A stretch of DNA of 64,000 nt from Candidatus Poseidoniales archaeon (GCA_012959435.1 DUDF01000074.1:37234-101233), one strand, 5' to 3'; counted from the first letter of the stretch, positions 8,366-26,310 are shown. The notes: generated from the letters alone by a model not told the origin. Translations and numbers: made by a program.

Positions 8366-11300
8366 ATGAAGAGAGCAACAAGTTTGGTTTTAGCACTGCT
8401 GATGTTAATGAGCATCGTAGCAAGCCTAAACCCAATAGAATTGAATGAAAAAGAGCAGGTGGATGATACCAATGGCCGAGCCGATTATGAGGTTTGGTTG
8501 ATGGGTGCAAACTCACCTCGTGAATCAACGACTGATATGACCGGCACGGTAAGAAATTCCGTGGACGCTGGAGAGGAGGTATTATTCGACATCGTCATCA
8601 AGAACGATGGTGACAACGATATATCTGAATTGACAGTTACTGTAACTGTATCTCCTAAGAGTAACTCATCTTCATTGCTAATCAATGCTGAAGACGCTGC
8701 AGTTTGTGATGACATAATTTCTTGTGGTATCCAAAACTTTGCATCTGGCGATTATTTGGCTAACGGCCATTATATTGTTCGTGATTCAACTGGAGCAAAT
8801 CTGGCTTGGACACCAGCAGTACCCGGTATGTATACAATTCATATCGAGATTGATGCTGCTGATCAAGACACCAATTTGAACAACAACATCCTAGATTATG
8901 ATGTTGATGTAGTGGATTGGTATGATATCTCAACAGAACTTACTTGGGATTCAGGAGACGACCCAATGTCTGGCGCAGGTCCACATGGATTTACTATGAC
9001 AGCATTTGTCAATGGTAGTGCAGAGTGGGCCCCTCGTGATGTTCAGATGGACGTCACAATGAATGGATTATTCCAAGCATTCCATGACGATGGTACGAAT
9101 ACTAACCCTGTTTCAATGTTTTCTACAACTAGTGATGGAGCGAACTCTGGGCCTATGGAAAACTGCCCTCAAGGACCAGGTGCTAGTTCATGTACATGGA
9201 CAGTAAACTTCGGTGAATTGTTTGGCGCTGGCCAAAATTTGACCACAAATGACATTGAAGTATTCAGCAACCTTTCAATGGAACCGCCAACTCTTGAGAT
9301 GGCAAGTGACAGGGGCGAAACCCGCCAAGTCCCTGACTTCCAGACCGCATACACCTTTGCAGGTACTATCCAAGGAGATTCGGCTAACGCAAATGGCGTA
9401 GGGACATTCACAGTCATGTCGTCTCTATCTAAGTATACTATGTATGAAATGATATCAACAGAAGACCAATCAGGCGCTCACCCACCTGCTGCTCCAACCA
9501 TTACTATGGAAGAGCGCGACCATACTCTTGACGATAGAAACGGAAACAATGATGCATTGATAACTGCAACCTTTGCCTCCTATCATGATGCACAAGTCAT
9601 CAATGTTGAGGCAGGTAACCCTCGTCAAGAAAGCGGCCGATTGGACGCTGGAATGACTCGGCTTTTCGCAACCATTGCTCACAGTGGTAGCGACCGAAAC
9701 ATCAACTATGATTGGATGGTTATGTTCAACGTAAAGGATTCAAATGGCGATGATATCATGGGCTCACCTTTCCCTGCAACAGAATGTGACAACCCAGATG
9801 ACCCTGAAGGTTCAACCTCGCACGAGTACTTGGGAGAAATGTTCCCGGCTACTCTTGAAGCAACTGCTTGCAATACGATAATGATTGACCCAGGTATGTT
9901 TTCAGTAAGTGCGACCGTTAATTTAATTGACGCATCAATGACTGATGGTGACAACGCTACTGATTGTACGCTCTCTACTACTCCTGACTGTAAGGTTGAC
10001 ATGAACACGGCTAACGACATGCGCACTGGACACTTTGAAGTCCTAAACTCGGGCCCATCGGCTTACCTGACAATGGATGAAGTTGAGGGTGACATCATTG
10101 ATGGAACACACATCACCTTCTCTGCACGTGCAGAACATCTTAGCCAGCCTGATATGGATATGGATGGAAATCCTGATCCATTTGGGTACATGTGGTCGAT
10201 GTCTGGTAATGAGATGGACCCACAGTTGGATATGTGTAGTGGTCAGCAAGATCCAATGACAGGCAATGTTATGGGAGGAAGTCCTGATTGTACAGTTGAC
10301 ATGAATCTTATGTGGTTGGGCTCCCCAACAATGATTGTTACAGTAGTGGATTACTGGGGTGCAGATGCATCTGCACAACTAACATTCAATGTTTGGAATA
10401 ACTATTCCAACGTTAATTCTGGAGATTGCTGGAGTGCTGAATACGATATTCTGTATGCTGGGAATCAGCAGTACACTGCACAATTCTCAGATGCTGATGG
10501 TGTAACAAACCAAGAATTACCTGGCAGCACAGCTAGGTACGATTCAGTCTGTGCATTCGAGATGGAAGTAAGTGGAATACTTGCACCTACTGATGTTAAC
10601 AGCGAAGACTTGACTGTGACTTTAGACGCAGACCCAACAGTTGGGCATTCTCTTTGGTATGAGGGTGGTACAGGGTGGGTTGAGTTGGCAGGTACAACTC
10701 AAACTCAGGTTGATGCAGATACAATTAATCTGTCATGGAGCAATGATGGTACTCTACCATCTCGCTCATCATCTCGATATGCAGTATTCGCATCTGCTAC
10801 TATTGGACAACCACCACTGATTGGTGTTGATTCGTTGACAGCAACCCTCAGTACTGCTGGAGTAATTGACCTTTCATGGAACATCACTAATCAACAACTC
10901 ACTGGAGCAGGGGATTTTGGTGTGCTTTACGTCAATGACGCTGGAGCAGCCCTTGATGGCACACGCAGTACCTTTGAATTGACAACAACAACCCACACAA
11001 TTTCTGGGACACACGGCACGACATACGAGTTCCTTGTGCGTGTAGAGAACGGACAAGTCGGAGCAGATGACAGCGCTCTATACGGTACACCTGTTGATTC
11101 AGGAAGTGCAACTGCAGACGGTCAAGTAGACCCAACAGCAGGAGCCGCTGACCTTGAGGCTGTAAGTTCTGGTGAATCAAGCATTCACTTCACCTGGAGT
11201 GCTACAGATACAAGCGATGTCAACAACTGGCTAATTTGCTGGTCACCAGCACAACACACCTCACTTGAGGTTTCAAGCCTAATCACTGCAGGCAACTGTC

Positions 11301-11617
11301 ACACCACTGCTGATTCTAGCATGGATATTACAATGGACAGGCACTCAGGATCTGGTGTCTTCTACTACTCAGTAGCAGCAGTTGATTCAGTTGGTAACAT
11401 GGAGACAGCAGCCTCCACTGCAGGTTTGAGATTCACTGATGACAGTGGGCCAGGCGTGAACGTTGACGACACTATCGGTGTTGAAGGTGGAGAAGGAGAA
11501 ATCCCAACCCAAGCTTGGATTGCAATCGGCATACTTGTCCTAGTGGCAGTTATCGCAGGTGCATTCATCCTAACCCGCGGTGGCGGCGAAGGCGATTCCG
11601 ACGAATTTGACTACTGA
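8366..11617 (+). CDS. Secreted, C-terminally membrane-anchored cell-surface protein (CARDB-like N-terminal domain, FN3-like C-terminal repeats), 1,083 aa
   Basis: Signal peptide 'MKRATSLVLALLMLMSIVASL'. CARDB-like 'GEEVLFDIVIKNDGDNDISELTVTVTV'. FN3-like units '...IDLSWNITN...YEFLVRVENG' and 'IHFTWSATD...YYSVAAVDSVGN'. C-terminal TM 'AWIAIGILVLVAVIAGAFIL' followed by 'TRGGGEGDSDEFDY'. Confidence 0.7.
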   Translation: MKRATSLVLALLMLMSIVASLNPIELNEKEQVDDTNGRADYEVWLMGANSPRESTTDMTGTVRNSVDAGEEVLFDIVIKNDGDNDISELTVTVTVSPKSNSSSLLINAEDAAVCDDIISCGIQNFASGDYLANGHYIVRDSTGANLAWTPAVPGMYTIHIEIDAADQDTNLNNNILDYDVDVVDWYDISTELTWDSGDDPMSGAGPHGFTMTAFVNGSAEWAPRDVQMDVTMNGLFQAFHDDGTNTNPVSMFSTTSDGANSGPMENCPQGPGASSCTWTVNFGELFGAGQNLTTNDIEVFSNLSMEPPTLEMASDRGETRQVPDFQTAYTFAGTIQGDSANANGVGTFTVMSSLSKYTMYEMISTEDQSGAHPPAAPTITMEERDHTLDDRNGNNDALITATFASYHDAQVINVEAGNPRQESGRLDAGMTRLFATIAHSGSDRNINYDWMVMFNVKDSNGDDIMGSPFPATECDNPDDPEGSTSHEYLGEMFPATLEATACNTIMIDPGMFSVSATVNLIDASMTDGDNATDCTLSTTPDCKVDMNTANDMRTGHFEVLNSGPSAYLTMDEVEGDIIDGTHITFSARAEHLSQPDMDMDGNPDPFGYMWSMSGNEMDPQLDMCSGQQDPMTGNVMGGSPDCTVDMNLMWLGSPTMIVTVVDYWGADASAQLTFNVWNNYSNVNSGDCWSAEYDILYAGNQQYTAQFSDADGVTNQELPGSTARYDSVCAFEMEVSGILAPTDVNSEDLTVTLDADPTVGHSLWYEGGTGWVELAGTTQTQVDADTINLSWSNDGTLPSRSSSRYAVFASATIGQPPLIGVDSLTATLSTAGVIDLSWNITNQQLTGAGDFGVLYVNDAGAALDGTRSTFELTTTTHTISGTHGTTYEFLVRVENGQVGADDSALYGTPVDSGSATADGQVDPTAGAADLEAVSSGESSIHFTWSATDTSDVNNWLICWSPAQHTSLEVSSLITAGNCHTTADSSMDITMDRHSGSGVFYYSVAAVDSVGNMETAASTAGLRFTDDSGPGVNVDDTIGVEGGEGEIPTQAWIAIGILVLVAVIAGAFILTRGGGEGDSDEFDY

Positions 11618-12090: not shown

Positions 12091-15000
12091 ATGGTGACAA
12101 AAAAGAATAAAGTGACTTTCGGGGGCAGTTGGCTATTGCTAACTCTCTTGATGATTGGAATGAGTTGGAGCGCTGCGGTTTCGCCGGTAACGGAAAATTT
12201 GCAGACTTCTGAAAACGATGGGGCAGAGTCTATTGACGACCTGCTGACTCTACCGGGTGATGTAATTAATCCGGCAGATAATGATGAATTTGGATATGAC
12301 GCAGGTGCTGAGCTAATCGGCTCCCGTACAGAAACCGCTAAAACCTTCTTGAAAGGTGATGGCGATTTTGAAGTTATTGTCTCTCCAGTGCCAGTCCATT
12401 ACTTGGACGATGGTGCATGGGAAGAGATAGACTTGTCAATCGAATCCAATGAAGAGGGATGGAGTGTCACACAGAACACATTCGAGACCTACTTCGGAAA
12501 CGATGCTCGTCAGGGTGTCCAAATGGTAGTTAATGGGGTATCCATTCGCTACGGTATTATGCCACAAATAGTGGTTCTAGATGGCAACACGCTATCTCCG
12601 GAACCTTACATGGCAAAGCCTAGCAGTGAACCTATTGATGTCGGTGGGAATGTAATCAGATATCCTATGTTATCTGGTATCTCGCTTGATTACAAGGTAA
12701 CTCCAACTCAGTTGAAGCAGAACCTCGTCATCCGAGAAGCACCAAACCTACTTGACCACCAGAAGGAGTCAGGATACTTCGGTATTGCAGAAACAATGAT
12801 TCTGCCAGCCGGATATGCTATCTTCCTAGGTGAGTCGCCTATTGCAGATGGAGAATTGGTGAAGACCAACCAATCACTCAGTATCCGCAATTTGGATACA
12901 GGTGAGGAATTGGTAGCGATCCCGCAACCTCTCGTTGAAAGTGTTGAACCTTCAGAAGAAGGCCCACACATCGGCGAGTACGTGATTCGGGTTCAAGGGG
13001 ACCAAGTTACTCTGACAACAGTCGTTGAGAATACATGGCTGATGGACAGTGATAACCGTTCTTTCCCAATTGCTATTGATCCAACTATGGACAAGGGTGC
13101 TCAGCGTGCTGGATATGCATACTACTACCGCATCACTCGATGGGGTTGGTACACATCCACATACGAATACGCATACTCTACTTCTTCATTGGGGTACACT
13201 TGCAGAGGCTCAGGTTCAGGCGCTAACAGTTGTACATCGGGTAGTTACACCTGGTACTACCGATACACTTGGTACCGCTTCGATTTCAACAGCGCGTTAC
13301 CAACTGGTGCGACTGTCAACAGCGTAGATTTCAAATCTAGTGTTGGTAGGTACCAAAGCGGGGCGCGGAATTTCGAAGTTGCTGTACTGAAGTCAGGTAG
13401 CAGTCAATCTAGTAATATGATTGACCCGAGTAGCTATCTGTATAGTAGTGGTAGATATTTGAACCGCTATATTAGAAACAGCGCAGCATCGTCTTCGTCT
13501 ACGTCATTGAGTGACCCAGGTTACTATTGGAATGGCGGTAACGTGCGATCCATTGGATTGAACACTAATGGGGTCGATGACGTACAAGATGCAGTTGATG
13601 GTAATGGAGCAGGTGGTACTGGGAACATCCTTGGACTAGGTCTGAGAAATACCGCTAACGCACCGTTCTGGTATTGGTGTATGACGAGTTACTACAGTTA
13701 CTATGGTTGCACAAGTGCTGCCAAGTATCCGCATTTGCATCTGGATTACAGTGGTGGTTCTGATACCGAACCTCCAGAGGACACATTTGTGCCTTACACT
13801 GGTCTAATAACTCACCGAGCAGAGCAGAGAACTTTCTGGCTCAGCCTAAAGGACACAACTGGTGTTGACACCACAACTAATGGCGGACCGTCACTAAGTT
13901 ACAGTGTTGATAACGGTACTTGGACCAACGTACATGCGACCGCATTGGGCACATGTCTTGCTGGATACTGGTGTAATTTCCGTGCCGTAATACCTGCGGT
14001 ACAGGATGGTGAATATGTTGAGTATTTCTGGGCATTCCAGGACTTGAAAGGGACTCTTGCCGGAACAACCGGTAGTCCCAACTTCAAGACTTTGCCCGTG
14101 GGTGGAACTGGTTCCCCAAGCAGTGTAACTGCTCCAAGTTCCCCTTACAACTACTTCGTACAACCAGATGATCAAGCAGATGCTACTAATAGCGATGGAA
14201 CTCCTAACAATAAGTGGCAACTAAAGATTGACCAATTAACCAATTTCCGATACTATTCGGTTTATCGATACTTTGATGAGCAAATTACATACTATGAAGA
14301 TACGCAAGAATACATTTGGGAGTATGATACTTCTAATTGTGGGACAGGAAATTACCAGTGTTTCAACACTGGTGCTTCTTACGAAATGAGATACAGTCCA
14401 ACTGTTAGTTCATACTCGTACTCAAATTGCGCTCAGAGTGCAACTTGTGTTGTAACAAAGCCTACTGGCTTGAGCATGACTGGCCAGAACGGCCCTGGCA
14501 TGTCCACAATTTGGTGGTACAATGCTGCAGAAGGAGCATTCACAGTAGTTGGTCTAGATGATGAAACTGGAATCGATCAGCCTGTTTCAAGTTCACCAGT
14601 AGGTACACAGGGCGGTGGTCGTAATTGCGATGACTGTTACTCTGCAGTACCAATACCTGGTGACATCACCATGAAGTTCGGTTCATTGAGTGTTAACGCA
14701 AGTTACACATCAAGCCGCAACACAAGAAATCATTTCTGTGTTAACAGCAACAACCATCCTCTGTACTTCTTGAGCAGCGGCAGCAGTAACCCATACTGTC
14801 TCTACTCATACAGTACCTACCGCTATGACCGCCAATTCAACGGTTGGATGGCACCAGGTTTCGATGGTCGTTGGTCAGCTAACACTGACATCTTCCAGAA
14901 GGTAAGTTCAGTTAGGCCAGTGCCTGATATCTTCCCACCAGAGTTTGACCACACAGGATTGATGGATACTCACAGTGTGGATGACAGGACAGTGACAGTA

Positions 15001-18000
15001 GGAATGAAAGATGCTGGAGATCCTCCATCAGGCATGAATACATCATCAGGTACTGATGCAAATGGAGTCCTTGAAGGACCACATCTTCTATACCGTGTAT
15101 ACAATGCTAGTAGTTCTTCATGGGGTAACTGGATTACCCGCGCAATGGCACAGGAAGCAGGCAAGACTCGCGCACAATGTGAACAAATGGATTGTGACTG
15201 GTCTACTAGTATCCCTGGTACAGACCGTGATAACAGTGTTGAATACAGTATTCACGCTAAGGATATCCTTGGCAACTGGAATAACTCCACTGCTACAAGT
15301 TATCTAATTGGAACGCCAACTCAGGTATTTACCGTTGAGTGGCATGACATGAATTGCGGATTTGGTCAACAATACAAGTGCTCTTACCAAATTAAGATGT
15401 ACGATGTAACAAATGAGATTGAGTATCACTATGATACTGGCTCATCTGCTTACTATGATTACGAGACCATTGGTTACCAAAAGGGTGGTTCATCACTCAT
15501 TGGTGCTACTCTAAGAGAGAGAGGTCCCGGATATATTGCTGGTGCAAACCCATACGCTAACAACTTCCGAATTGCGACAGATGGTAACAACCACGCAAAT
15601 GAGAAGATGGCACCAGGAATGACTGAATTGTACAATTACGATGAAGTATTTACTGGCAACTCTAACGGGAATCCATACACATACTACTGCACACGATACT
15701 GGTATAACTACCGAAATCAATGTGCTGAAGTAATTGACGTCCCAGCAGGATTTGATATTGATTACTTCGGTACCACTTACAGTGGTAACAGTAGTGACAA
15801 GTTACACGTGATCCGCCACGGTGCAGCAGCTTTCAGCACATCAACATCAACAACACCGATGCAGATGGCGTATTATGGATGGGGCAGTAATTGGCCTACC
15901 ATGCCTAACTCAGGTTCATACGCGCGCAATGCAATGTTGACTCCATGGTTCGGTTACTACGGTGCATACTACTGTTACAACGGTGGTAGCAACGAATGCA
16001 GTATCCGCACAAAGACCATCCCATTCGATGGTGCTGGTATGGATGTTTACGCAGACATTACTCAAGACACAATATGGGATATAGAAATGAGTCCAATTCG
16101 TGTTGTGCCAAGTGGTGACTATCTACGTGTAACAGCAAATCTAGTGATTGATGCAGGTGTCGAAGTTCAATTCGCACCAGGTAAAGGATTAGATATGGCA
16201 GGAACATGTTCCCGCTTGACTACTCAAGGAAATGCAACCCACCCAGTGTCGGTTAGCAATCTTGGTAACGGAAACGGTAAGGGATTTGCATTCACCAGCG
16301 GTTGTGCAGACACTGATGACAGGCACATGTTCAACAACACTGACTTCAGCAACTTAGATGTTGCAATCAGTGCAGGTAGCCGTCACGGAAATGCACCTCA
16401 CCACAACGGAAATGTAGGTAACTTTACCTTTGACACAGTCACATTTACCGATGTTGGTACTGCAATCAAGCACGGTTCAGGAACAGGTACTGGTTTTGAT
16501 CTCTCTGGAGTTTCAATAACCAATGCAACTAACTCCTGTATTGACTTGCCTGACGATGCAGTATTGTCATGGTTAGAAGGTTCGGCAACGAACTGTAACA
16601 TGGGTAGTTCATCTACTGAAGGTGCTATCAAGACCGGTGACGGAAGCGATATTTACCTAGAGAATCTAACTATTAATGATGCAGCGCATAACGGTGTCTT
16701 TGGTGAAGCAATGTCAATTCATGCTAGCAACGTTAGCATGTCAACAAGTGGACTATCAAGCACAGAAGTTGGTGGGACGGCCCTCGGCCAAACATCACTG
16801 GCAACTACTGGATCAAGTTTCTTTGCTAACAATATTGATGCAGCAGGATATGCAAATGCTATCGTGTCATATGCTACAGACAGCATGTCGATGACAGACA
16901 TTAGTGGAGGTTCAATCTCGTTGGCTCCAGGAGGTACCGCAGGTACTATGCTTGGTGACTCAGGTTGGTCCGCTAGTGGAATTACCAGTACTGGTAATAT
17001 GGTGATGTCAAGGACTACTCCAGGTTCAATGGATAATGTAGACCTAGATGGATATCTTCGCATGGACGGAACAGCGTCTACAGGCGACATGGTTTCACTA
17101 ACTGGTCTAGTTGCTGACGGTATTACAATCGCAGGATGCGGTTGGAATGTCCGAGCTGATGAGGCTGACCTTGGTGATGCAACCAACGGCGTATGGGCAA
17201 CTGCTTCGTGTACATCAAGCAGTGCTTCTAGCACATTGACTGTCGCAGGCGGTTCAATGGACGGTAGTTCCTCTAACGCAAATATTATTTATGCACGTAA
17301 TGCAAAGGTTACAGTCGCAGATGTGGCAATAACTGGCCAAACATCTAGCGGCGCGTATGTAGCACAAGCAAGCACTAACGGTGATGTTAGATTAATCGGT
17401 GTCTCATGGAGAGGTCTCGATTGTGCAGATGCAGCTGGTTGGACAGGAATGTCCGACTGTTGGGTTGATGTTTCATCATCCTCAGGTGCATTGTATGTCG
17501 GTGGAACTGCTAATGTTGCAGCATACCGTGTAATGAACTTTGTACCAGTATTCGTTGCTGACCATTCAGTTACTACCACTACAGTAAGCACTTCGGGCAC
17601 TTGCCCAGGTGCTGCTTGTGTAGTCACTGATGTTACATCAGTTGGTACATCTAATACAGATAGTTCTGGAAACGCTATTGTTTGGTTACTTCAAGACAAG
17701 TTAGAGAAGGTTAGTGGATCAACCTCTGTTACTGACTCGTACACAGACCACCGAATCGCCATTGCTGGCGGTGCAGGTCAGAACGAGACAGGACCAGCTG
17801 ACGTATGGTATTCACCAACATGTCTGATTAACAGCATGGATTGTTCTATGCCGTTAAGCCCAGGTGATCAAGTATACATCAAGTTGGAAGCGTTCCCACA
17901 AGATTGGAACGGCGCAACTAAGAATTGTGCGTTCTTGAATTCAAACACATCTGTATCTAACGGTTACTACCTATACACAATGCAAATCATTACTCTATCA

Positions 18001-21000
18001 ACTGACTTAGTTCTTGATGGATGCAAGTTGCACTTGAATGGAACAAAGATAATGATTAACCGCACAGCTAACAATAACCCAACAATCACTATCCAGAACG
18101 GAGGCGAACTTCTGCTCTCCGAAGGTGGTGGCGAAGTTGGTAACATGAAGGCAGTGACCAGCGCTTACGGCTGGGAGATGGAAATCCAAAAGGGCGGTAC
18201 TTTCGTTGTAGATAACGGATACATCCGAGGTATGCATCAGAACTCCAATACTGGAGGGGCGATGAATGTCGGTGAAGGAACGCTTGAGTTGAAGAATGGC
18301 GCCATAGTTTACGGTAGTCAAACAACTTCAGCAACAATGGCGACCATCAAGGTTGATGGAGGAACTCTGTTAGTTAACGATGCGAGTGTATACAATGCAC
18401 AGCAGACTGGTGTTGGTGTTTGGATAGAAAATTCCGGAACCAGCGCCATTCAGAACATCGGTGTAACTGGAGCAGCTACTGGCGTAATGATCAAGGATGC
18501 AGCCCCAGCAATTGACGGCTTCACCCTGAATGATAACACAGTTGGTGTAGAAATTGATGGCGGAATGACGCTACCAAGTATCTACCGTTCAACTCTACTA
18601 TCAGGTCACGCACGCGGTTGGGAAACTTACGAAATTGATTTGACTGGATTGGCAAGTAATTACAATTACATCCAATTCGGTTTCAACAACGTCTACATGG
18701 GCGGAAATGTCCACCCAATGTACAACTACTACACAAGTCGTTACTTCGCAATGCACGACCGAATGCGCATCGGACTCAATGATGGAATTGATGATGATGG
18801 TGATGGTTTTGGTGATCAGATTGAGAATTTCACAACGGATGCTGCTGGAAAAGCAATGACTGGATACTATGACTCCGGTTTCACTTCAAACGTTGGTGAC
18901 AGGAATAATCCAAATCATCCTTCAAGAAACGATGGATGGGCGACTTACGACTGCAATTACTACGGCTATCAATACAGCCCAGGTGGTTCCTATCAGTATG
19001 GTTACTACTACTACATGAACAACTACGGACCTTACACTAATTCAGGTAACTACTACGGTGCAAACTCTTACCCAAGCGACTTCGGGTACACAATCGAAAA
19101 GGCAGAGGGTCTGACAGGTTCACAGAACTACTACCCGTACGAGTACTGGGGTTACTACTACACACCATACCATGGTGGATATGGTGACTTCATGCCACCA
19201 GAGGGCTACAACGGTCTTTGGGGTAACTACAACGTATGTCTATCATACGCATACCGTTACCAGACACCTACACCAAACGGATGGCAAATGGCTTGGCCTA
19301 TTGTTGATGTTAGCAGTGCAAGTGTAACTGAGGCAGCAGCATACATCGATATCCTACACAACTACGCAGATTACTACGGAGACCGATATGACTTCGTATT
19401 CCGTGGTGGAAGCACTGTCAATGATTTGATGGACGCAAACTGGGGTAGAGAATTTGGAACTGCTACACTAGCAAATGGTGTAATTGATGGTTCAGATACA
19501 GGTATTCACCTTGCTGGCAACTATGCTGCTGGTAGTTTGAGCACTGTTACAGTCAATGACCCTGTGAATGAGGGTGTATTGGTTGACGGCAGTTCATCTG
19601 TTGAATTGGATGGCTTAACAGTCAACAACGGTCGCTATGGTGTCCGTACAACTGCAGCAGCAATTGGTTCATTGGAGTTGACTAACGCAGCTCTAGACAA
19701 CCAATCTCAAGACGGTATTGTTCTAGCATCTGGACTTAAGATGGACCTAAGTGGTTCAATCACCAATGCTGCAGGCGCTGCAATCAATGTTCTACCATCA
19801 AGTACGAAGGAATGGGGCTTCAATAGCCTAACTCTTACAGACAACAACATTGCTCTGAATAACGACGGTTCTGGAGAAGTTACCTGTACTGATTGTACTA
19901 CTGGTACCAATACAAACGATGTTGTAACATCAGGTTTGGTTACTTGGGTTGAAGGAGATATTGATCTAGCCACGGTGGTAGCGACGGGTTCAGGACTCTT
20001 GCAAAGAGCAAGGTTGCTGGACGTAACTATCACTGCAGATGGCAGCGGTGTCAGTGGAACTGGAGTGAGCATGATTGATGCCAATAGTAGACGCGTGGGC
20101 TCAGGTGAAACTGACGGTGCGGGTACAGTGAACGATATGCTGTTCCACACCAATTATGTTGATTCTTCGGGATGGACTGTGGTGAATTTAGCCGGATACG
20201 AAATAATGAGTGTTGCTAAAGTTGCTTACAGCACAACTGTTGCTGATTTCAGATATGCTAAAACTGGTATAACTTTGGTTGATGGGCCAGGTAACTCTGA
20301 TACGGTAGCACTGGTGGATCGGTTTGATGCACATGTTTGTTACAGTTGGACTTCAACTTCGTATAACGTGTTAGCATCTTGTGCTGGTGCCAATTATATT
20401 GGGACTGGGAGTTCTAGGACCAAATTGAATGGTGATGGTGCCGGAGGTACGATAACCGAATATGGTTACTTTGCAGCGATACCAACAGATATGACGAACA
20501 AAGCGATTCTAATTGACTCGCCTTACCTATATACTCCTACGAGTGGAGCATCATTCAATGGTTCAACAGTTATCGTTGCAGGATTCTACAACAATGAATG
20601 GTCTGATTTGTATGTACAAAATTATGCAGGTGATATCTACCTAGATGACACGACGTGGGCAGCAATTAGTCCGAAGGAAACAGCCTTCTTCAACTTAGGA
20701 TATTACGGTGGTTACAGTTACGGTAATTTCTTCGTTAACGATTCAACGCTGATTAACGTTGGTGCTGTTGGAAGTGGTGCTGGTTATTACAACCGTAACC
20801 CAGAGATGCATGTTACTAACAGCGTGTTAGTATCGTACTCTCAGTTGGATGATGTACAATCGGTATATCCAGAAGAAATCTGTATCCAGTCAGCTGGAAC
20901 AGATTATGGTGACTGGGAAGTTCATAACAACACTATGTACGACTGTACTGTTGGAATCATGATTTACTCTAACTACTATGCAACCAGCCCTGCCTATGGT

Positions 21001-24000
21001 GGATCTGGGACAGATGGTGCACACTGGGCTGACAACACAATGTATGACAGCACATACCTGCCAATCTGGATTTACCTACAATCTGATGCAGATGACTTAC
21101 TTATTGAAAACAACACTGTAACTGGCTCAAAGAGAGTACAATACGGTATCTACGCACAAGACAATCGTCTGAACAGTGTAGAGATTCGTGGTAACACTCT
21201 GTTGACTGCTGATGAACCTATCTACATGCGTAATGCTAAGAATTGGGACATCAACAATAACACAATCAAAGGTGATGCAAACTCAGCCCACTCTGGTATT
21301 TATGTCAGAAACGGTGAAGGTTCAATTGCAGATAACACACTGATTGATGCAGATGGCGGAATCAACGTTTACGGTATCCGCTCTGGATATGATGTGGATA
21401 TCTCAAGAAACACTGTTGGTGCATCTGGTGGACGTGTTTCACCAACTGCAACAGGTATCTATGTAGAGAACTGTGGACTTGCAGAAGTTACAATGTCAGG
21501 CAACCATGTCAGCACAACATCTAACGCTCTATTGTCAGATGGTTGTGACGTATCTGATGTTGGCAGTACATTCGCCAGCGCAGGTGGTTCAGCTTCACAG
21601 ATTCATTCTGTGGACATTGAGGCGTCTCAATTTAGTCCAACAATTAAGAACATCTCAACAGGTGATACAGTTCGATGGATATTGACTCAATACAACAGCG
21701 ATCCTAACAACTACCAGCACTCAACAACCAGTAACACCTCTGGACTTTGGGACAGCACACCATTGAACTTGGGCTCAACATTTGCCCACACGTTCACAAC
21801 TGCTGGCACCTATGAGTACCATTGTAGTGTTCACAGTTTCATGAGTGGTGTAGTCAATGTGGCAAACAGTACAGGTAGCAGCAACTTGCAAACATACGGA
21901 ATTGACATCCTTGACGGAAGCGAGGACATCTCCCTTGATGGTACTACCATCGGCGGATTTAGCCTAGCATACCGACAAGACGGTGGTTCTCTCAATGTAG
22001 AGGGCGGCTCAGTTGTCACAGGTGACAACGGTTTCGATTTGACCAATGTTGACATAACAGTTGACGGTCTAAGTGTATCTGCAGACAGTGGATTTGGTAT
22101 CGGTATGGACGTTTCGTCTGACACCGGTCGCCACACATTGGATGTTGCTAACATGGATACATCTGGTGGCATTGGTATGCTAGTTGATGGTCATGATGAT
22201 TTCCGCTGGAATGGCGGTGACTCAACTGCAACTACAACTTTGAAGACACTTAGTGGTGCATCAGGTACGATTGAGAACATGACTGTAACAACAGATGGTC
22301 CATGGAGATCCAACCACGGTGGAAGTATGACCCAGATTAATGCTGGAGCATACTCAACCATCACTAGCGTTGGAAACACACTCAATGAGAGTATGTTGAC
22401 CATTGGAACCAGTGCGGTCATTCACGAGGGTAACCTCCTTGACCTAACAGTTACACACATGGGTGGAGCAGCAAGCAACGTTGGATTGATGATTAAGTCA
22501 ACCGACCTTGGTCGCTCAGAATATGTCAGCCCATCGTGGCGCTCTAACATCATCTCCGTTGGAGAAGGTGCAAATGGTGCAGCAGCAGTTACTGACTGGT
22601 TCGTAAGTCATCCACTTGGAGCGTATAACATTGCAGACGATGCAATGCCTGGTCCAGTTGCGGTCAACCCTGACCCAACTAGCCAAGCAATGGGATACAT
22701 GACTTGGGATAACTCAAATCTGTACATCGCGCTAACTGGAGTGACTTTCTTGGTCACAGACGGTATGTGGTATCTTGATACCCAGCAAGGTGGTTCAAAC
22801 GTTGGTGACAATTGGTATGTCAGTCACAATCTGCCATTCGAGGCAGATTATATGCTATGGGCAGAGGACCTAAACAACTGGGGTATCCGTAAGGTTATGC
22901 CTGGTGGAAACTGGGTTGATGTTACAGCAGCATGTAATGGTATGCAAGCAGCACCTGGTTTCGGTTACCCAGGAGTCACTCCAACATGGAGTGGTATCTC
23001 TGAGTTCGCAATCCCATGGGACTGTATTGGAAGCCCAACAGGACGAATCAAGACTCTAGCAATCATCCAGAACGAAAACTCTGGTCACGTGCTTGGTGTT
23101 TATCCACCACAGCTATGGAACCAGACTAGTGGAGCCGCTCAGACATTCGGTGACTTCGGTACACTGCAATTGACTGGTAGCGATTTGGCTGATGGTACTC
23201 TAGATGATTACCTGCTAATCCACCGAACCTTCACAGCGACTGGCGCAACAACACCTCGCGCATACGATGTGACTGTTAAGGTACGAGACGCAGATAACAT
23301 CTATTGGGACTGGGGTACACATAGTTCGCTAGCAATGGATCAGAATCAGGATATCACAATTGATATCTTACGAGCAAAGCCAGCTATTGCTGACTTGGTC
23401 GATGTATCATACGATGAAGATTCAGGGGCGCATACTGTGACGTTGACTGATAAGGCTGCAGATTACCAGCAGCCATCGAGTACACTGTCATGGACTGTAA
23501 CTAACGATGCTACAAACCCAAGCAATGCAACATCACCATACGCCTACGATTTGACTGGTCAGACAATGACCATCACTCCAGATGCGAATGAGTTTGGCAA
23601 CCAGAGACTATTCTTGGTTGTCACTGATGGACATGGCTTGTACAGCACTCAGTCAATGCTTGTTGGAGTAGAGAACGTCAATGACGCACCAGTAATCAAC
23701 AACCCACGACACTCAGCCGGCCTACCAGTATTTACTGAAGGCATTGATGTCAATGGTAATGCGGTTTACAACTCATACGATGAACCTCAGAGGACACATC
23801 CAGTGACCGGTGAGGAGAGAGAATGGGATCTGTTAACCAAGTTCTTGGGTGGCGCATCTGGTGAAGGATTTGTTCAAGATTTGGGACTCGGCGATGGTCT
23901 AGCGAATGAGCAAGACAGGAATGCTGACAACAACACTGAGCAAGCACCTCAAACCTACACATGGACAGCAGTTACTGACCCAGTAGATTGTACACCATTC

Positions 24001-26004
24001 GACGTAAGCATCAATGGCGGAACCACTCTAGAAATTGACCTCAACGAGGCAAATGAAGACGGTGGTACCTGTAACATTGTATTGGACCTTTCAGACGGTG
24101 CATCAGTAAATGATGCAGCGACAACAATAAGTGTACCATTCACTGTTCAGCCAACCAACGATAATACTCGTATTATCCCATGGGATGTAAACAACGGTTC
24201 AGTCATTAGCACTAAGTATCTAGATACTAATGGTGACAAGGTAGATGGTAACATCAGACAAACTAGTCAAGCAGCTAACAACGATGGCGATGCTTGGTGG
24301 TGGTCTGTGGATGAGGACACAGAGGACTCTGACCTACTAACCATTGATTTGACAGATATGATGAGTGACAACGATAACACCAACGAACAACTATACTGGA
24401 CTATCGATGACTCTCAGTACTACACTGACAAGTGTTCATACGAGAATTACTTCTCAGTAACAATTGACAACACTGAACATACAATGGAAATCGATTTGAT
24501 TCCTGATGCAACCACAGATGCAACAAGCAGCGAGTGGGATATGCTACAGGATGCAGACGGTGATGGTATACCAGATGATGGTATCCACCAGAAGGCACCA
24601 AGATCTGGTGACTACTGTCTGATGAATCTAATTCTGTGGGACCCTGTCTCACAGAGTGAAGTACCACAGTATGATTACGTACAGTCAGAGGCTTGTGAAG
24701 CACTTGACCTAGATGGCGATGCAGCAACCAACTGTTATGCACAGACTCACAGTAACCACGAGTTAAGCATCAATGTCCACAACCTAGTGGAATTGCGACC
24801 GGACTACAACTTCAACGAAGTACGTGTAGCTCCTGATGCGTTTGACTTCAAGGGAATTAACGGTGTTCTGCGCGAAACTATGGTACCAGTGTCTGTTGAA
24901 CTAAAGCACACAGATGGTGACGAGCCAATCAACACAGATGGTACATACAAGTATCTTTACGACCTTCAAGTGTCATTCTATATCGTTGACACTGATTGTG
25001 CAGGCTGTGATGGTACATACCAGAGCAGTGTAAGACTTGGAAGCAATGGTCCAGGAAACGGTGCACTAGCACTACCTGACTACGGTGGAACAGTTGAGGT
25101 TGGCAATTACGTCCGAATGAACAAGACATCTGAGGATGTTCGTGTGTTCGTAGACATAATGACAGTGAATCCATTCACTGGTCAATACACTGACAACTCG
25201 AAGTACGAGAGACCAGCTCTAGAAGAGAAGAACTGGGCAGACAACAACATGACTGCTTCAGGAACTAACAGCGAGTTACCACTAATTGTGGAGACCAAGG
25301 CAGCACAGAGTGTTGCTTCGTTCGCTCCAACATTGATGGCAGTCGGCCTAGTCGGCGTATTCGTTGGTGCTCTACTCAGCCGCTCTCGAGCGGAAGAGGA
25401 CGAGGAAGAGTTCGAGGAGGAATCATTGATTGACGATGACCGTGCAGTTAGCCCGGTTATCGCAACCATCCTTCTTGTGGCAATCACAGTCGTCTTGGCT
25501 GGTGTAATCTACGTGTGGGCAGGCTCACTCGCAGATACCAGTACCAAGGGAGTACCACGGTTGACCTTCTCTGCAGAAGCAATTACTGTACAAGAGATCA
25601 GTGGACTACAACAGGACCAATGGCACTGGAGAGTTACCACAACATATGCAGCGACAGATCTAGCCACTCAGGCAGTGACAGTCTCGGTATTGTGGACCAA
25701 TGCTAGCGGACAGCAAGTGTACAAGACTGCACTAGCACCTGGTGGTGGCGATGAAGAGAATGTATACGGATTCGCACCTCGTAACAGCGAGAATATGGTG
25801 ACCTTCTGGGATGACATATCTCATTGTGAGCGCGGTGGTGCACCTTGTATCACAACCTTCGGACCTGGTGACAGAATCTTCATCAGAATGACTGACAATG
25901 ACGGTCTCATCGACTCGGCATTGATTGACATTCAGTACGAATTGCCTGGTGGCGCTGCGTACATGTTGAAGCAGTACACTGCATCACCAACCAGCATACG
26001 CTGA
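12091..26004 (+). CDS. Giant mosaic cell-surface protein / putative adhesin, 4,637 aa
   Basis: One uninterrupted 13.9-kb ORF. Signal peptide is 'KVTFGGSWLLLTLLMIGMSWSAAV'. It carries multiple parallel beta-helix-like repeat blocks, a cupredoxin domain, cadherin-like 'VENVNDAPVI' modules, a 'DADGDGIPDD' Ca-binding-like motif and Tyr-rich tracts. The C-terminus is a TM anchor followed by a pilin-like module. Confidence 0.85.
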   Translation: MVTKKNKVTFGGSWLLLTLLMIGMSWSAAVSPVTENLQTSENDGAESIDDLLTLPGDVINPADNDEFGYDAGAELIGSRTETAKTFLKGDGDFEVIVSPVPVHYLDDGAWEEIDLSIESNEEGWSVTQNTFETYFGNDARQGVQMVVNGVSIRYGIMPQIVVLDGNTLSPEPYMAKPSSEPIDVGGNVIRYPMLSGISLDYKVTPTQLKQNLVIREAPNLLDHQKESGYFGIAETMILPAGYAIFLGESPIADGELVKTNQSLSIRNLDTGEELVAIPQPLVESVEPSEEGPHIGEYVIRVQGDQVTLTTVVENTWLMDSDNRSFPIAIDPTMDKGAQRAGYAYYYRITRWGWYTSTYEYAYSTSSLGYTCRGSGSGANSCTSGSYTWYYRYTWYRFDFNSALPTGATVNSVDFKSSVGRYQSGARNFEVAVLKSGSSQSSNMIDPSSYLYSSGRYLNRYIRNSAASSSSTSLSDPGYYWNGGNVRSIGLNTNGVDDVQDAVDGNGAGGTGNILGLGLRNTANAPFWYWCMTSYYSYYGCTSAAKYPHLHLDYSGGSDTEPPEDTFVPYTGLITHRAEQRTFWLSLKDTTGVDTTTNGGPSLSYSVDNGTWTNVHATALGTCLAGYWCNFRAVIPAVQDGEYVEYFWAFQDLKGTLAGTTGSPNFKTLPVGGTGSPSSVTAPSSPYNYFVQPDDQADATNSDGTPNNKWQLKIDQLTNFRYYSVYRYFDEQITYYEDTQEYIWEYDTSNCGTGNYQCFNTGASYEMRYSPTVSSYSYSNCAQSATCVVTKPTGLSMTGQNGPGMSTIWWYNAAEGAFTVVGLDDETGIDQPVSSSPVGTQGGGRNCDDCYSAVPIPGDITMKFGSLSVNASYTSSRNTRNHFCVNSNNHPLYFLSSGSSNPYCLYSYSTYRYDRQFNGWMAPGFDGRWSANTDIFQKVSSVRPVPDIFPPEFDHTGLMDTHSVDDRTVTVGMKDAGDPPSGMNTSSGTDANGVLEGPHLLYRVYNASSSSWGNWITRAMAQEAGKTRAQCEQMDCDWSTSIPGTDRDNSVEYSIHAKDILGNWNNSTATSYLIGTPTQVFTVEWHDMNCGFGQQYKCSYQIKMYDVTNEIEYHYDTGSSAYYDYETIGYQKGGSSLIGATLRERGPGYIAGANPYANNFRIATDGNNHANEKMAPGMTELYNYDEVFTGNSNGNPYTYYCTRYWYNYRNQCAEVIDVPAGFDIDYFGTTYSGNSSDKLHVIRHGAAAFSTSTSTTPMQMAYYGWGSNWPTMPNSGSYARNAMLTPWFGYYGAYYCYNGGSNECSIRTKTIPFDGAGMDVYADITQDTIWDIEMSPIRVVPSGDYLRVTANLVIDAGVEVQFAPGKGLDMAGTCSRLTTQGNATHPVSVSNLGNGNGKGFAFTSGCADTDDRHMFNNTDFSNLDVAISAGSRHGNAPHHNGNVGNFTFDTVTFTDVGTAIKHGSGTGTGFDLSGVSITNATNSCIDLPDDAVLSWLEGSATNCNMGSSSTEGAIKTGDGSDIYLENLTINDAAHNGVFGEAMSIHASNVSMSTSGLSSTEVGGTALGQTSLATTGSSFFANNIDAAGYANAIVSYATDSMSMTDISGGSISLAPGGTAGTMLGDSGWSASGITSTGNMVMSRTTPGSMDNVDLDGYLRMDGTASTGDMVSLTGLVADGITIAGCGWNVRADEADLGDATNGVWATASCTSSSASSTLTVAGGSMDGSSSNANIIYARNAKVTVADVAITGQTSSGAYVAQASTNGDVRLIGVSWRGLDCADAAGWTGMSDCWVDVSSSSGALYVGGTANVAAYRVMNFVPVFVADHSVTTTTVSTSGTCPGAACVVTDVTSVGTSNTDSSGNAIVWLLQDKLEKVSGSTSVTDSYTDHRIAIAGGAGQNETGPADVWYSPTCLINSMDCSMPLSPGDQVYIKLEAFPQDWNGATKNCAFLNSNTSVSNGYYLYTMQIITLSTDLVLDGCKLHLNGTKIMINRTANNNPTITIQNGGELLLSEGGGEVGNMKAVTSAYGWEMEIQKGGTFVVDNGYIRGMHQNSNTGGAMNVGEGTLELKNGAIVYGSQTTSATMATIKVDGGTLLVNDASVYNAQQTGVGVWIENSGTSAIQNIGVTGAATGVMIKDAAPAIDGFTLNDNTVGVEIDGGMTLPSIYRSTLLSGHARGWETYEIDLTGLASNYNYIQFGFNNVYMGGNVHPMYNYYTSRYFAMHDRMRIGLNDGIDDDGDGFGDQIENFTTDAAGKAMTGYYDSGFTSNVGDRNNPNHPSRNDGWATYDCNYYGYQYSPGGSYQYGYYYYMNNYGPYTNSGNYYGANSYPSDFGYTIEKAEGLTGSQNYYPYEYWGYYYTPYHGGYGDFMPPEGYNGLWGNYNVCLSYAYRYQTPTPNGWQMAWPIVDVSSASVTEAAAYIDILHNYADYYGDRYDFVFRGGSTVNDLMDANWGREFGTATLANGVIDGSDTGIHLAGNYAAGSLSTVTVNDPVNEGVLVDGSSSVELDGLTVNNGRYGVRTTAAAIGSLELTNAALDNQSQDGIVLASGLKMDLSGSITNAAGAAINVLPSSTKEWGFNSLTLTDNNIALNNDGSGEVTCTDCTTGTNTNDVVTSGLVTWVEGDIDLATVVATGSGLLQRARLLDVTITADGSGVSGTGVSMIDANSRRVGSGETDGAGTVNDMLFHTNYVDSSGWTVVNLAGYEIMSVAKVAYSTTVADFRYAKTGITLVDGPGNSDTVALVDRFDAHVCYSWTSTSYNVLASCAGANYIGTGSSRTKLNGDGAGGTITEYGYFAAIPTDMTNKAILIDSPYLYTPTSGASFNGSTVIVAGFYNNEWSDLYVQNYAGDIYLDDTTWAAISPKETAFFNLGYYGGYSYGNFFVNDSTLINVGAVGSGAGYYNRNPEMHVTNSVLVSYSQLDDVQSVYPEEICIQSAGTDYGDWEVHNNTMYDCTVGIMIYSNYYATSPAYGGSGTDGAHWADNTMYDSTYLPIWIYLQSDADDLLIENNTVTGSKRVQYGIYAQDNRLNSVEIRGNTLLTADEPIYMRNAKNWDINNNTIKGDANSAHSGIYVRNGEGSIADNTLIDADGGINVYGIRSGYDVDISRNTVGASGGRVSPTATGIYVENCGLAEVTMSGNHVSTTSNALLSDGCDVSDVGSTFASAGGSASQIHSVDIEASQFSPTIKNISTGDTVRWILTQYNSDPNNYQHSTTSNTSGLWDSTPLNLGSTFAHTFTTAGTYEYHCSVHSFMSGVVNVANSTGSSNLQTYGIDILDGSEDISLDGTTIGGFSLAYRQDGGSLNVEGGSVVTGDNGFDLTNVDITVDGLSVSADSGFGIGMDVSSDTGRHTLDVANMDTSGGIGMLVDGHDDFRWNGGDSTATTTLKTLSGASGTIENMTVTTDGPWRSNHGGSMTQINAGAYSTITSVGNTLNESMLTIGTSAVIHEGNLLDLTVTHMGGAASNVGLMIKSTDLGRSEYVSPSWRSNIISVGEGANGAAAVTDWFVSHPLGAYNIADDAMPGPVAVNPDPTSQAMGYMTWDNSNLYIALTGVTFLVTDGMWYLDTQQGGSNVGDNWYVSHNLPFEADYMLWAEDLNNWGIRKVMPGGNWVDVTAACNGMQAAPGFGYPGVTPTWSGISEFAIPWDCIGSPTGRIKTLAIIQNENSGHVLGVYPPQLWNQTSGAAQTFGDFGTLQLTGSDLADGTLDDYLLIHRTFTATGATTPRAYDVTVKVRDADNIYWDWGTHSSLAMDQNQDITIDILRAKPAIADLVDVSYDEDSGAHTVTLTDKAADYQQPSSTLSWTVTNDATNPSNATSPYAYDLTGQTMTITPDANEFGNQRLFLVVTDGHGLYSTQSMLVGVENVNDAPVINNPRHSAGLPVFTEGIDVNGNAVYNSYDEPQRTHPVTGEEREWDLLTKFLGGASGEGFVQDLGLGDGLANEQDRNADNNTEQAPQTYTWTAVTDPVDCTPFDVSINGGTTLEIDLNEANEDGGTCNIVLDLSDGASVNDAATTISVPFTVQPTNDNTRIIPWDVNNGSVISTKYLDTNGDKVDGNIRQTSQAANNDGDAWWWSVDEDTEDSDLLTIDLTDMMSDNDNTNEQLYWTIDDSQYYTDKCSYENYFSVTIDNTEHTMEIDLIPDATTDATSSEWDMLQDADGDGIPDDGIHQKAPRSGDYCLMNLILWDPVSQSEVPQYDYVQSEACEALDLDGDAATNCYAQTHSNHELSINVHNLVELRPDYNFNEVRVAPDAFDFKGINGVLRETMVPVSVELKHTDGDEPINTDGTYKYLYDLQVSFYIVDTDCAGCDGTYQSSVRLGSNGPGNGALALPDYGGTVEVGNYVRMNKTSEDVRVFVDIMTVNPFTGQYTDNSKYERPALEEKNWADNNMTASGTNSELPLIVETKAAQSVASFAPTLMAVGLVGVFVGALLSRSRAEEDEEEFEEESLIDDDRAVSPVIATILLVAITVVLAGVIYVWAGSLADTSTKGVPRLTFSAEAITVQEISGLQQDQWHWRVTTTYAATDLATQAVTVSVLWTNASGQQVYKTALAPGGGDEENVYGFAPRNSENMVTFWDDISHCERGGAPCITTFGPGDRIFIRMTDNDGLIDSALIDIQYELPGGAAYMLKQYTASPTSIR
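20911..21566 (+). other. Domain within giant CDS: right-handed parallel beta-helix (PbH1 / NosD-like) repeats
   Basis: Periodic ~22-aa repeats: 'HNNTMYDCTVGIMIYSN', 'ADNTMYDSTYLPIWIYL', 'IENNTVTGSKRVQYGIYAQ', 'IRGNTLLTADEPIYMRN', 'INNNTIKGDANSAHSGIYVRN', 'IADNTLIDADGGINVYG', 'ISRNTVG...GIYVEN', 'MSGNHVS'. Confidence 0.6.
21595..21870 (+). other. Domain within giant CDS: amicyanin/plastocyanin-like cupredoxin with a complete type-1 copper ligand set
   Basis: 'SVDIEASQFSPTIKNISTGDTVRW...YQHSTT...FTTAGTYEYHCSVHSFMSGVVNV'. Candidate ligands are His3210 (21718), Cys3245 (21823), His3248 (21832) and Met3251 (21841). The C-x2-H-x2-M spacing matches amicyanin 'YDYHCTPHPFMRGKVVV'. Confidence 0.75.
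25315..25380 (+). other. Predicted transmembrane anchor of the giant protein (aa ~4409-4430)
   Basis: The hydrophobic stretch 'SFAPTLMAVGLVGVFVGALLS' is followed by 'RSRAEEDEEEFEEESLIDDD' (25381-25440). Confidence 0.6.
25426..26004 (+). other. Archaeal type-IV-pilin-like (Pilin_N/DUF1628-type) module encoded in frame at the 3' end of the giant CDS; possible nested or independent CDS from TTG 25426
   Basis: '(L/M)IDDDRA-VSPVIATILLVAITVVLAGVIYVWAGSL' matches a class III signal peptide plus hydrophobic pilin helix, followed by a ~185-aa domain. GGAGG at 25416-25420 lies 5 nt upstream of the in-frame TTG. Confidence 0.7.
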
Positions 26005-26018
26005 ACTGTGTAATACGA

Positions 26019-26065
26019 AGCGCCTTCGGGCGCTGAATGCAGGGATGCTTGGGGGCTTCGGCCCC
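26019..26065 (+). terminator. Two short GC hairpins, each closed by a C(UUCG)G tetraloop, just after the giant gene stop
   Basis: agcgcc-ttcg-ggcgct (26019-26034) and ggggc-ttcg-gcccc (26052-26065). Confidence 0.45.
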
Positions 26066-26119
26066 TGAGCACCCGACCTTCCGTGATAGAGCGTGAGCTC
26101 TGTATCGGTAGGATGATTT

Positions 26120-26175
26120 GGCCCCGCCTCCGTTCGGCATCTGCTGAGCGGTGGTGGGGCCTTTTCTCTTTTTTA
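26120..26175 (+). terminator. Long-range GC stem followed by a T-rich tract
   Basis: ggccccgcc...ggtggggcc (9 bp with one G-U), followed directly by ttttctctttttt. Confidence 0.5.
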
Positions 26176-26310
26176 GCAATTAATCTCAATATTTAGCAGG
26201 GAAATACAACTTTACTGAATGGGAAAACAAATCATAGAAATATGTTGTTTAACAGTTTAATCATTCCATTCATAAGAGACTATTAGCACCGCAAACATGA
26301 GTTGTGAGCA

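Follow-up and report, generated by a model that had tools for sequence, protein, structure and literature searches.

A giant surface protein of Candidatus Poseidoniales continues in frame into a type IV pilin precursor, suggesting that the two are made as one chain and then cut

Why should the gene for a giant surface protein run on, past its membrane anchor, into what looks like the precursor of a pilin? The question is raised by a 64,000-nt stretch of DNA from a Candidatus Poseidoniales archaeon (GCA_012959435.1, DUDF01000074.1:37234-101233), here called the window, in which one open reading frame (ORF; 12091..26004, + strand) encodes 4,637 aa, the last 185 of which form a pilin-like module. 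The organism falls among the Marine Group II (MGII) archaea, which are uncultured and very abundant in the surface ocean. Class III (prepilin-type) signal peptides are defined, predicted (with tools of the FlaFind type), and annotated as N-terminal features, and the one considered here lies near the opposite end of its protein. The original prediction, made from the sequence of the window, offered three readings: a stop-loss fusion of an adhesin gene with a pilin gene, a pilin gene nested within the larger one and translated from an internal start, and a polyprotein cut by the prepilin peptidase. The in-frame continuation into a complete type IV pilin precursor suggests synthesis of the giant protein and the pilin as a single chain that is cut afterward.

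The translation and the DNA of the ORF bore out that its four C-terminal parts (membrane anchor, acidic stretch, pilin signal with its helix, and terminal domain) lie in a single frame with zero stops between them, the product ending '...SVASFAPTLMAVGLVGVFVGALLSRSRAEEDEEEFEEESLIDDDRAVSPVIATILLVAITVVLAGVIYVWAGSLADTSTK...PTSIR' before the stop codon (coordinates are given in Table 1). The text leading into the anchor reads '...SVASFAPTLMAVGLVGVFVGALL', and the first transmembrane (TM) segment, TM1, has a mean Kyte-Doolittle hydropathy of 2.18. The pilin segment starts with the codon for V4453 at 25447, reads 'VSPVIATILLVAITVVLAGVIYVWAG...' and then continues for ~155 aa to the TGA. Its class III-like motif is unique across all six frames of the window and begins at residue 4451 of 4,637, rather than behind the short leader, at the N terminus, of class III proteins.

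Profile searches identified the module as a pilin. On the module, Pilin_N (PF07790) scored 40.6 bits (E = 4.7e-10) against a curated cut-off of 25.2 bits, and still reached 34.6 bits when the whole protein was scanned; TIGR02537 gave 49-50 bits (cut-off, 20 bits). Lack of a significant Pilin_N match had been named beforehand as an outcome that would refute the original prediction, which came through this check. The family profile also matched solved archaeal pilus subunits (8fj5_A at 2e-12, 9myg_A, and 8gi2_A), and no FlaF/FlaG or archaellin family was found for the module in Pfam at E <= 1. An AlphaFold2 model of the 187-aa module, built from a 44-sequence alignment, had a mean predicted local distance difference test score of 81 and showed a 27-residue helix (residues 5-31 of 187) followed by a beta-sandwich. 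Compared with the PDB by Foldseek, its top 10 matches were all archaeal type IV filament proteins, namely, archaellins (5z1l, 9eq7, and 7ofq), a Cuniculiplasma pilus (8rey), and FlaF (4p94 and 4zbh), with E values of 1.6e-4 to 2.3e-3, a probability of 1.00, and modest template modeling scores of 0.3-0.5. An earlier, longer model gave the same structural picture, and FlaG (5tuh) was also among the structural matches. By profile match and modeled fold, we take the module to be a genuine archaeal pilin.

The residues around the junction point the same way. Haloarchaeal pilin precursors known from solved filaments read 'NDDSA/VSPVIG' and 'SDNERA/VSPVIG' (the slash marks the cut), stand-alone MGII pilins start 'MKNETRNDEA/VSPVIATILMVAITVVLAGVLYVWA' or 'MKRADIRRDDEDRA/VSPVIATIL', and one of their leader ends reads 'RRDDEDRA/VSPV'. 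Because these stand-alone proteins share its residues, the junction 'LIDDDRA/VSPVIATILLVAITVVLAGVIYVWA' matches a bona fide leader end and mature N terminus. What the module has in common with archaeal type IV pilins (PF07790/TIGR02537; PilA 8fj5, 8gi2, and 9myg; stand-alone MGII pilins) is thus the acidic residues, the small residue at -1, VSPVI[AG], a near-identical alpha-1 helix, and the helix-plus-beta-sandwich fold. The difference lies in what precedes it: described pilins have an N-terminal signal with a short leader, whereas the 'leader' of the giant protein is 4,452 aa long and includes a Sec signal, an ectodomain, and a TM segment.

To see how far this arrangement extends, we scanned one genome per GTDB species and retained the 80 best loci; 75 distinct junction sequences were used for site statistics, segment identity, and the ratio of nonsynonymous to synonymous substitution rates (dN/dS). 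All but one of the 80 loci are labeled Poseidoniales or a broader archaeal taxon, the exception being a contig in a metagenome-assembled genome (MAG) labeled Verrucomicrobiales, probably a binning error; labels at the family level include both Poseidoniaceae (MGIIa) and Thalassarchaeaceae (MGIIb). The genomes nearest to the window are Candidatus Thalassarchaeaceae (MGIIb) MAGs, which are 96-98% identical within the module. Alanine at -1 and VSPVIA at +1 to +6 were found in all 75 junctions. Acidic residues (D or E) nearly always occupy positions -3 to -5, with a charged residue at -3 in 73 of the 75, and position -7 is always hydrophobic (M in 41, L in 22, I in 11, and F in 1). In the window, 'RAVS' satisfies the cleavage motif of FlaFind 1.2, [KRDE][GA][ALIFQMVED][ILMVTAS] (PMC4307647), and is followed by a hydrophobic helix of 26 aa.

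The surroundings of the site are similarly stereotyped. The layout (S/G)F(A/L)P-TM-RR was found in all relatives, and the loop that follows is 21-24 aa long in the 75 junctions, with means of ~9.5 acidic and 2.3 basic residues. The original prediction had argued for an out-TM-cytoplasmic loop-TM-out topology, an argument that we judge sound; this topology places the predicted site on the cytoplasmic face of the membrane, and FlaK and PibD cut at that face (PMC4307647). The sequon in the beta domain, kept in 48 of the 75 relatives, fits an extracellular location for that domain.

The fusion itself is conserved among relatives. About 50 metagenomic relatives (42-97% identical) span the whole module, and most of those that reach upstream carry the SFAP motif, TM segment, Arg pair, and acidic loop in frame. 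Across the junction the frame is open in all 80 species-representative loci, from MGIIa and MGIIb alike, and it runs from the motif to the edge of the locus for up to 3,339 codons; in the single exception, it starts 2,303 codons upstream. Full-length relatives (3,639-5,559 aa) have a Sec-type N-terminal signal, with a basic n-region and then a hydrophobic h-region at the start of P0126, P0136, P0138, P0139, P0153, and P0205, and carry the pilin signal ~180 aa from the C terminus; in those of 4,372-5,559 aa, the motif lies 4,190-5,366 residues from the N terminus. Synteny downstream of the giant gene is kept as well, with a HAD hydrolase gene followed by that for CinA or the PolD small subunit. 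No unfused homologue was seen among the relatives examined, and a word-index search that returned only 10 hits contained no homologue of the giant protein that stops after the anchor without a pilin.

Substitution patterns indicate that the protein sequence is what has been kept (Table 1). The pilin helix is by far the most conserved segment, its dN/dS being four times tighter than that of TM1 (0.021 versus 0.084), and since its dS of 0.47 is comparable to that of the other segments, it is the protein that is being conserved. Purifying selection is evident in the loop (dN/dS, 0.14), whose differences in length among relatives are whole codons. We conclude from these comparisons that the fusion is ancient, selected, and order-wide across the Poseidoniales, and the in-frame conservation argues for translation through the junction. 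As to how the arrangement arose, the obvious source is still a joining of two genes in the distant past.

These data bear directly on the simplest objection, that adjacent genes for a surface protein and a pilin have been joined by an error of assembly or sequencing or by a recent loss of a stop codon. Because a neighboring surface protein (8366-11617) ends in a TM segment, a short acidic tail, and a stop, nothing would seem amiss if the giant gene, too, stopped behind its acidic stretch, and some databases do list the module as a separate gene. The two parts are nevertheless in frame in 80 of 80 independent species-representative assemblies and also in metagenome contigs from many projects, purifying selection acts on the loop, and the separate-gene calls that we examined trace to N-gaps, contig edges, long-read contigs noisy with frameshifts, or low-coverage chimeras. 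Comparison of the orthologues examined at the junction revealed no genuine stop and no separate genes. An artefact or accident of this kind is exceedingly improbable and effectively refuted, and with it goes the first of the three original readings insofar as it meant a recent event.

Public annotation of the module (L087, L088; P0001-P0047) is systematically wrong: the names 'type IV pilin' and 'flagellin-like protein' are given to a supposed gene of its own that starts from an internal Met or at the start of a short contig, with hundreds of open codons upstream. For example, the 183-aa 'type IV pilin' P0009 of NCBI starts at an internal Met at a contig edge, behind which 711 in-frame codons are open, and an internal Met at a contig edge was picked in L087 and L088 (GCA_018666355.1 and GCA_018660715.1). 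The apparently separate pilin genes P0022 and P0016 (N-gap loci L001 and L090) are split off by runs of N in scaffolds, inside the SFAP motif or TM1, and the call in L093 stems from a long-read assembly fragmented by frameshifts. Two apparently stand-alone copies, P0021 and P0030, lie on contigs with 1.4-1.6x coverage (L085, 1-1370, and L086, 1-1243), in which the promoter and leader of a stand-alone MGII pilin are joined to a giant-type globular domain within the shared helix; L086 further holds adapter-derived sequence and the syntenic HAD gene. Both are probably assembly chimeras across the near-identical helix-coding stretch, real recombination between two pilin genes being the less probable alternative. 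Two giant-pilin loci occur per MAG in ERR2206762_bin.189 (L036 and L083) and in MAG JJ.4 (L030 and L035). The two junctions in bin.189 clearly differ. Either some Poseidoniaceae genomes hold a pair of paralogues or the bins are mixed.

A nested gene would allow the fusion to be real and the pilin still to be a separate product, made mainly from an internal start (TTG at 25426; ATG in many relatives) on the giant mRNA or on an internal transcript. The GGAGG and the in-frame TTG 5 nt downstream, on which the original prediction based this reading, are present as described. Moreover, among 82 junction DNAs surveyed up to 12 codons upstream of the site, 68 have an in-frame ATG, GTG, or TTG, compared with the 45% of 11-codon windows that hold a start codon by chance, and a Met of this kind is often taken by gene callers and by NCBI as the start of a 'type IV pilin' in its own right, as in P0009. 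The codon in question, however, encodes the conserved hydrophobic residue at -7, which is Ile or Phe in 12 of 75 junctions, so that it is not conserved as a start. Roughly 7 of the 82 junctions lack any ATG, GTG, or TTG in the surveyed stretch, and a 4-mer resembling a Shine-Dalgarno (SD) sequence precedes a start in only 26. In the giant ORF, GGAGG occurs seven times, three times followed by an in-frame start; a 5-mer SD precedes just 6 of the 40 gene starts in the window, and direct reading revealed no A/T-rich TATA-like element within 25380-25425. Nor would exclusive internal initiation keep a common frame for the two parts throughout 80 of 80 genomes, whose insertions and deletions are of whole codons. 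We consider a nested gene very unlikely and prefer the caveat already attached to the original prediction, in which Glu codons give rise to the GGAGG as a by-product.

What we favor, tentatively and as a claim that falls just short of an even chance, is a conserved polyprotein that would be cut at the cytoplasmic face of the membrane by a class III signal peptidase. The N-terminal Sec signal would direct export of the ~4,400-aa ectodomain until TM1, following the SFAP motif, halted transfer and left the acidic loop of 21-24 aa in the cytoplasm. The class III signal, which is also the pilin alpha-1 helix, would then restart translocation and bring the ~155-aa beta-sandwich domain outside. A peptidase of the PibD/FlaK/EppA type, a GxGD aspartyl protease whose active site faces the cytoplasm, would cut between A4452 and V4453. 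Two products would arise in a 1:1 ratio at one membrane site, namely, a TM1-anchored giant protein with a short acidic tail and a pilin starting VSPVIATIL. The predicted tails end in '...DDAA' or '...DDDRA', for example, 'ADDEEEVESMAEDDAA' in Poseidoniaceae and '...SLIDDDRA' in the lineage of the window. Because each pilin costs the translation of 4,637 codons, the pilin would be of low abundance, with a minor, priming, or anchoring role rather than that of a bulk subunit, and through it the giant protein would be linked to a structure resembling a type IV filament. Invariant residues at the site, acidic residues like those of a leader, and constraint on the helix at the level of a pilin are expected of a processed, functional pilin, which makes the polyprotein the best supported of the three readings, although it is unproven. 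In its fullest form, the proposal is that this is the first internal class III signal, at which a GxGD peptidase cuts a polytopic precursor in a cytoplasmic loop and so splits a surface protein of ~480 kDa (estimate) from a 1:1 minor pilin that primes or anchors a filament-like structure displaying or positioning the giant protein; this we hold to be possible but somewhat below an even chance.

Several observations weigh against cleavage. Residue -2 is less canonical in most relatives than in the window, where it is R: 60 of the 75 fused modules have A, M, T, G, L, V, or Q there, unlike stand-alone pilins, which mostly have a charged residue (E, K, D, or R). As a result, only 15 of 75 relatives have the strict FlaFind 4-mer, a number that rises to 51 if the cut is allowed one residue earlier for AA and GA cases. 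We know of no class III substrate whose leader contains a TM segment and thousands of residues. Processed class III leaders are typically 6-12 aa long (PMC4307647). Among the window genes scanned, to 57 kb, there was no peptidase and no gene for an assembly ATPase or platform protein (T2SSE/T2SSF type); the genes nearby have housekeeping functions (HAD, CinA, the PolD small subunit, and others). No peptidase appeared in ~1.39 Mb of related loci either, a weak negative because the motif screen (G.GD[VAILFM][KR]) was crude, nor was pilus machinery or a peptidase found beside the one stand-alone pilin locus examined. Finally, published surveys report archaellum-type (fla) loci from every MGIIa genome but from only part of the MGIIb genomes (PMC6461757; PMC6864105). 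As the window belongs to MGIIb, filament assembly in its organism is uncertain.

An alternative is that the protein is never cut. A hairpin of two helices, TM1 and that of the pilin type, with the acidic cytoplasmic loop between them, would then hold a one-piece protein in the membrane, and the beta-sandwich at the membrane surface would act in the manner of ArlF/ArlG (FlaF/FlaG), binding the envelope or docking to the base of a filament without polymerizing. The presence of FlaF (4p94 and 4zbh) and FlaG (5tuh) among the structural matches favors such an uncut hairpin, as does the relaxed -2 residue relative to stand-alone pilins. Many MGIIb genomes reportedly lack fla loci, which also speaks for it, and both the narrow range of loop lengths and the hydrophobic -7 would suit a fixed hairpin geometry. 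However, the hairpin leaves unexplained why A/VSPVIA is invariant at a cytoplasmic interface, why the helix is held so much more tightly than TM1, and why the residues ahead of the site copy the leaders of stand-alone pilins, and the Pfam search placed the module in neither FlaF/FlaG nor an archaellin family. We regard an uncut hairpin as the main rival, plausible but clearly short of an even chance.

Known systems share parts of the proposed polyprotein arrangement. Modular pilins such as PilB of Streptococcus sanguinis (PMC8179133), and the MGII proteins P0175 and P0182, likewise combine a pilin and a large functional or adhesive module in one chain; the extra module of modular pilins is C-terminal to the pilin and enters the filament with it. 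The order in the giant protein is the mirror image of this, and in contrast to modular pilins, its large N-terminal part has its own export signal and anchor, with a cytoplasmic loop and a predicted site in between. P0175 and P0182 show that the conventional order is present in MGII. The substrate-binding proteins of the Sulfolobales bindosome are a precedent for a class III signal that installs a nonfilament surface protein in the envelope (bioRxiv 10.64898/2026.04.22.720090). In these, unlike in the giant protein, the signal is N-terminal, ahead of the functional domain, and there is no second TM segment or polyprotein layout. ArlF and ArlG have an N-terminal helix anchor and a beta-sandwich resembling the module model (4p94, 4zbh, and 5tuh), and FlaF binds the S-layer (PMC4307647). 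They are, however, small separate proteins of the archaellum operon, to which the module is similar in structure but not in family, and no archaellum operon was found among the window genes scanned.

Tripartite sorting signals offer a further comparison. PGF-CTERM/archaeosortase and PEP-CTERM/exosortase signals consist of a short motif, a TM helix, and a basic cluster at the extreme C terminus. The (S/G)F(A/L)P motif, TM helix, and Arg pair of the giant protein (25318-25389, + strand, and in all related loci) resemble these signals but are not C-terminal, as ~210 residues follow SFAP-TM-RR, and no NCBIfam CTERM model matched the 249-aa C-terminal region at E <= 1. Among the top 150 of 548 representative hits, every internal class III signal belonged to the giant-protein family; apparent multi-stretch matches in P0174 and P0248 were rejected as low-complexity false positives. 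An internal prepilin architecture is mentioned neither in two censuses of archaeal type IV systems, from 2016 and 2026, nor in the MGII phylogenomic papers (PMC6461757; PMC6864105). No description of a giant protein-pilin fusion was found in the literature searched, which is no proof that it has never been noted.

Table 1. Features of the giant ORF and the region behind it, with segment conservation among 75 distinct junctions
Feature	Coordinates	Strand	Basis	Pairwise identity	dN/dS
Sec-type N-terminal signal peptide, MVTKKNKVTFGGSWLLLTLLMIGMSWSAA/VSP...	12091..12177	+	Translation; predicted cleavage position
Ectodomain, ~4,380 aa, largely unannotated	12178..25317	+	Pfam, PDB, NCBIfam comparisons
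Cupredoxin/amicyanin-like domain, residues ~3160-3257	~21568-21861	+	Copper-bind, PDB 5fc9_A
One tandem-95 repeat, residues 3807-3872 of giant protein			NCBIfam tand_rpt_95, below cut-off
Last 89 aa of ectodomain				55%	0.144
SFAP motif and TM1, S-FAPTLMAVGLVGVFVGALL; TM1 = F4411-L4429	25318..25377 (TM1 25321-25377)	+	Hydropathy, conservation	74%	0.084
Predicted cytoplasmic acidic loop SRSRAEEDEEEFEEESLIDDDRA, S4430-A4452, 23 aa, ends 'DDDRA'	25378..25446	+	Sequence, relatives	59%	0.141
GGAGG (25416-25420), 5-nt spacer, in-frame TTG (25426-25428)	25416..25428	+	Judged incidental
Predicted class III signal peptidase site A4452/V4453 (RA/VS)	25444..25449	+	FlaFind 1.2 fit; predicted cleavage
Pilin alpha-1 helix, second membrane-spanning segment, VSPVIATILLVAITVVLAGVIYVWAGSLAD	25447..25536	+	Pilin_N/TIGR02537, AlphaFold2	95% (minimum 83%)	0.021
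Beta-sandwich globular domain, ~155 aa	25537..26001	+	AlphaFold2, Foldseek	59%	0.148
N-glycosylation sequon N4537-A-S	25699-25707	+	N-x-S/T kept in relatives
TGA stop codon of giant ORF	26002..26004	+
Four GC-rich hairpins, two with UUCG loops, last then U-run	26019..26181	+	Minimum free energy -99.7 kcal/mol, z = -7.8

The ectodomain of the giant protein is largely without annotation. Copper-bind is the sole Pfam match there (21.6 bits against a cut-off of 21.2 bits); the same domain matched PDB 5fc9_A at 4.2e-8 and amicyanins at ~1e-6, and NCBIfam matches to tand_rpt_95 and amicyanin were below their cut-offs. The label 'adhesin' used in the original prediction is an assumption and unproven, the ectodomain being recognizable only as a cupredoxin domain and one tandem-95 repeat. 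The ligand loop of the cupredoxin domain, 'HCSVHSFM' (C-x2-H-x2-M), looks intact and has the counterpart 'YCKNHAFM' in the relative P0134; a type-1 (blue) copper domain inside a giant surface protein is unusual. The end of the N-terminal Sec signal (12091-12195, + strand), 'SWSAA/VSPV', echoes the 'A/VSPV' of the internal class III signal. We set this echo aside as probably a coincidence because P0136, the closest relative ('SWSAAVSPA'), is the sole full-length homologue to have it as well.

The hairpins listed in Table 1 lie just behind the stop codon, and comparable structure (-80 to -112 kcal/mol per 200 nt) follows the gene in all 19 other orthologous loci examined (L005, L007, L011, L012, L014, L015, L017, L019, L070, L084, and nine MGIIa loci). 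Compensatory changes affect 12 of the 27 pairs predicted in seven MGIIb sequences, where the motif GAAUGCAGGG is for the most part kept. No Rfam match was found for 26019-26181. The structure may be a terminator or a stabilizer of the long mRNA, or, alternatively, it may be an unannotated small RNA.

On the upstream side, an ABC ATPase gene and then a gene for a 1,586-aa MacB/FtsX-type permease (together 2765-8239, + strand) lie just upstream of two surface-protein genes. In the permease, two stretches each of FtsX and MacB_PCD accompany an extracytoplasmic region of very large size. The first of the two surface proteins (8366-11617, + strand; 1,083 aa) has weak DUF11 and fn3 matches and ends '...ILTRGGGEGDSDEFDY' before its stop, with an ordinary anchor of a TM segment and a short acidic tail and with neither the SFAP motif nor a pilin module; the second is the giant protein.

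An order-wide internal class III signal means that the N-terminal definition of these signals misses substrates, and the internal position accounts for the database entries in which the module stands alone under the name 'type IV pilin' or 'flagellin-like protein'. If the giant protein is cut as we propose, the locus would be a genetic means of pairing a pilin one to one with a giant surface protein. Prepilin-type GxGD proteases, which are related to presenilins (PMC4307647), would then gain an internal, polytopic substrate and stand nearer to the presenilin mode. Such processing would also amount to a hitherto unrecognized way in which a giant surface protein is linked to the machinery of type IV filaments, and it would be universal among those planktonic archaea that are most abundant in surface seawater. 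To our knowledge, the attachment of MGII to particles and phytoplankton has been argued from gene content only. A core, syntenic surface protein of ~4,600 aa that is tied to a pilin module gives a concrete handle on the cell-surface biology of these archaea, and the fusion makes a prediction that is directly testable in ocean metaproteomes.

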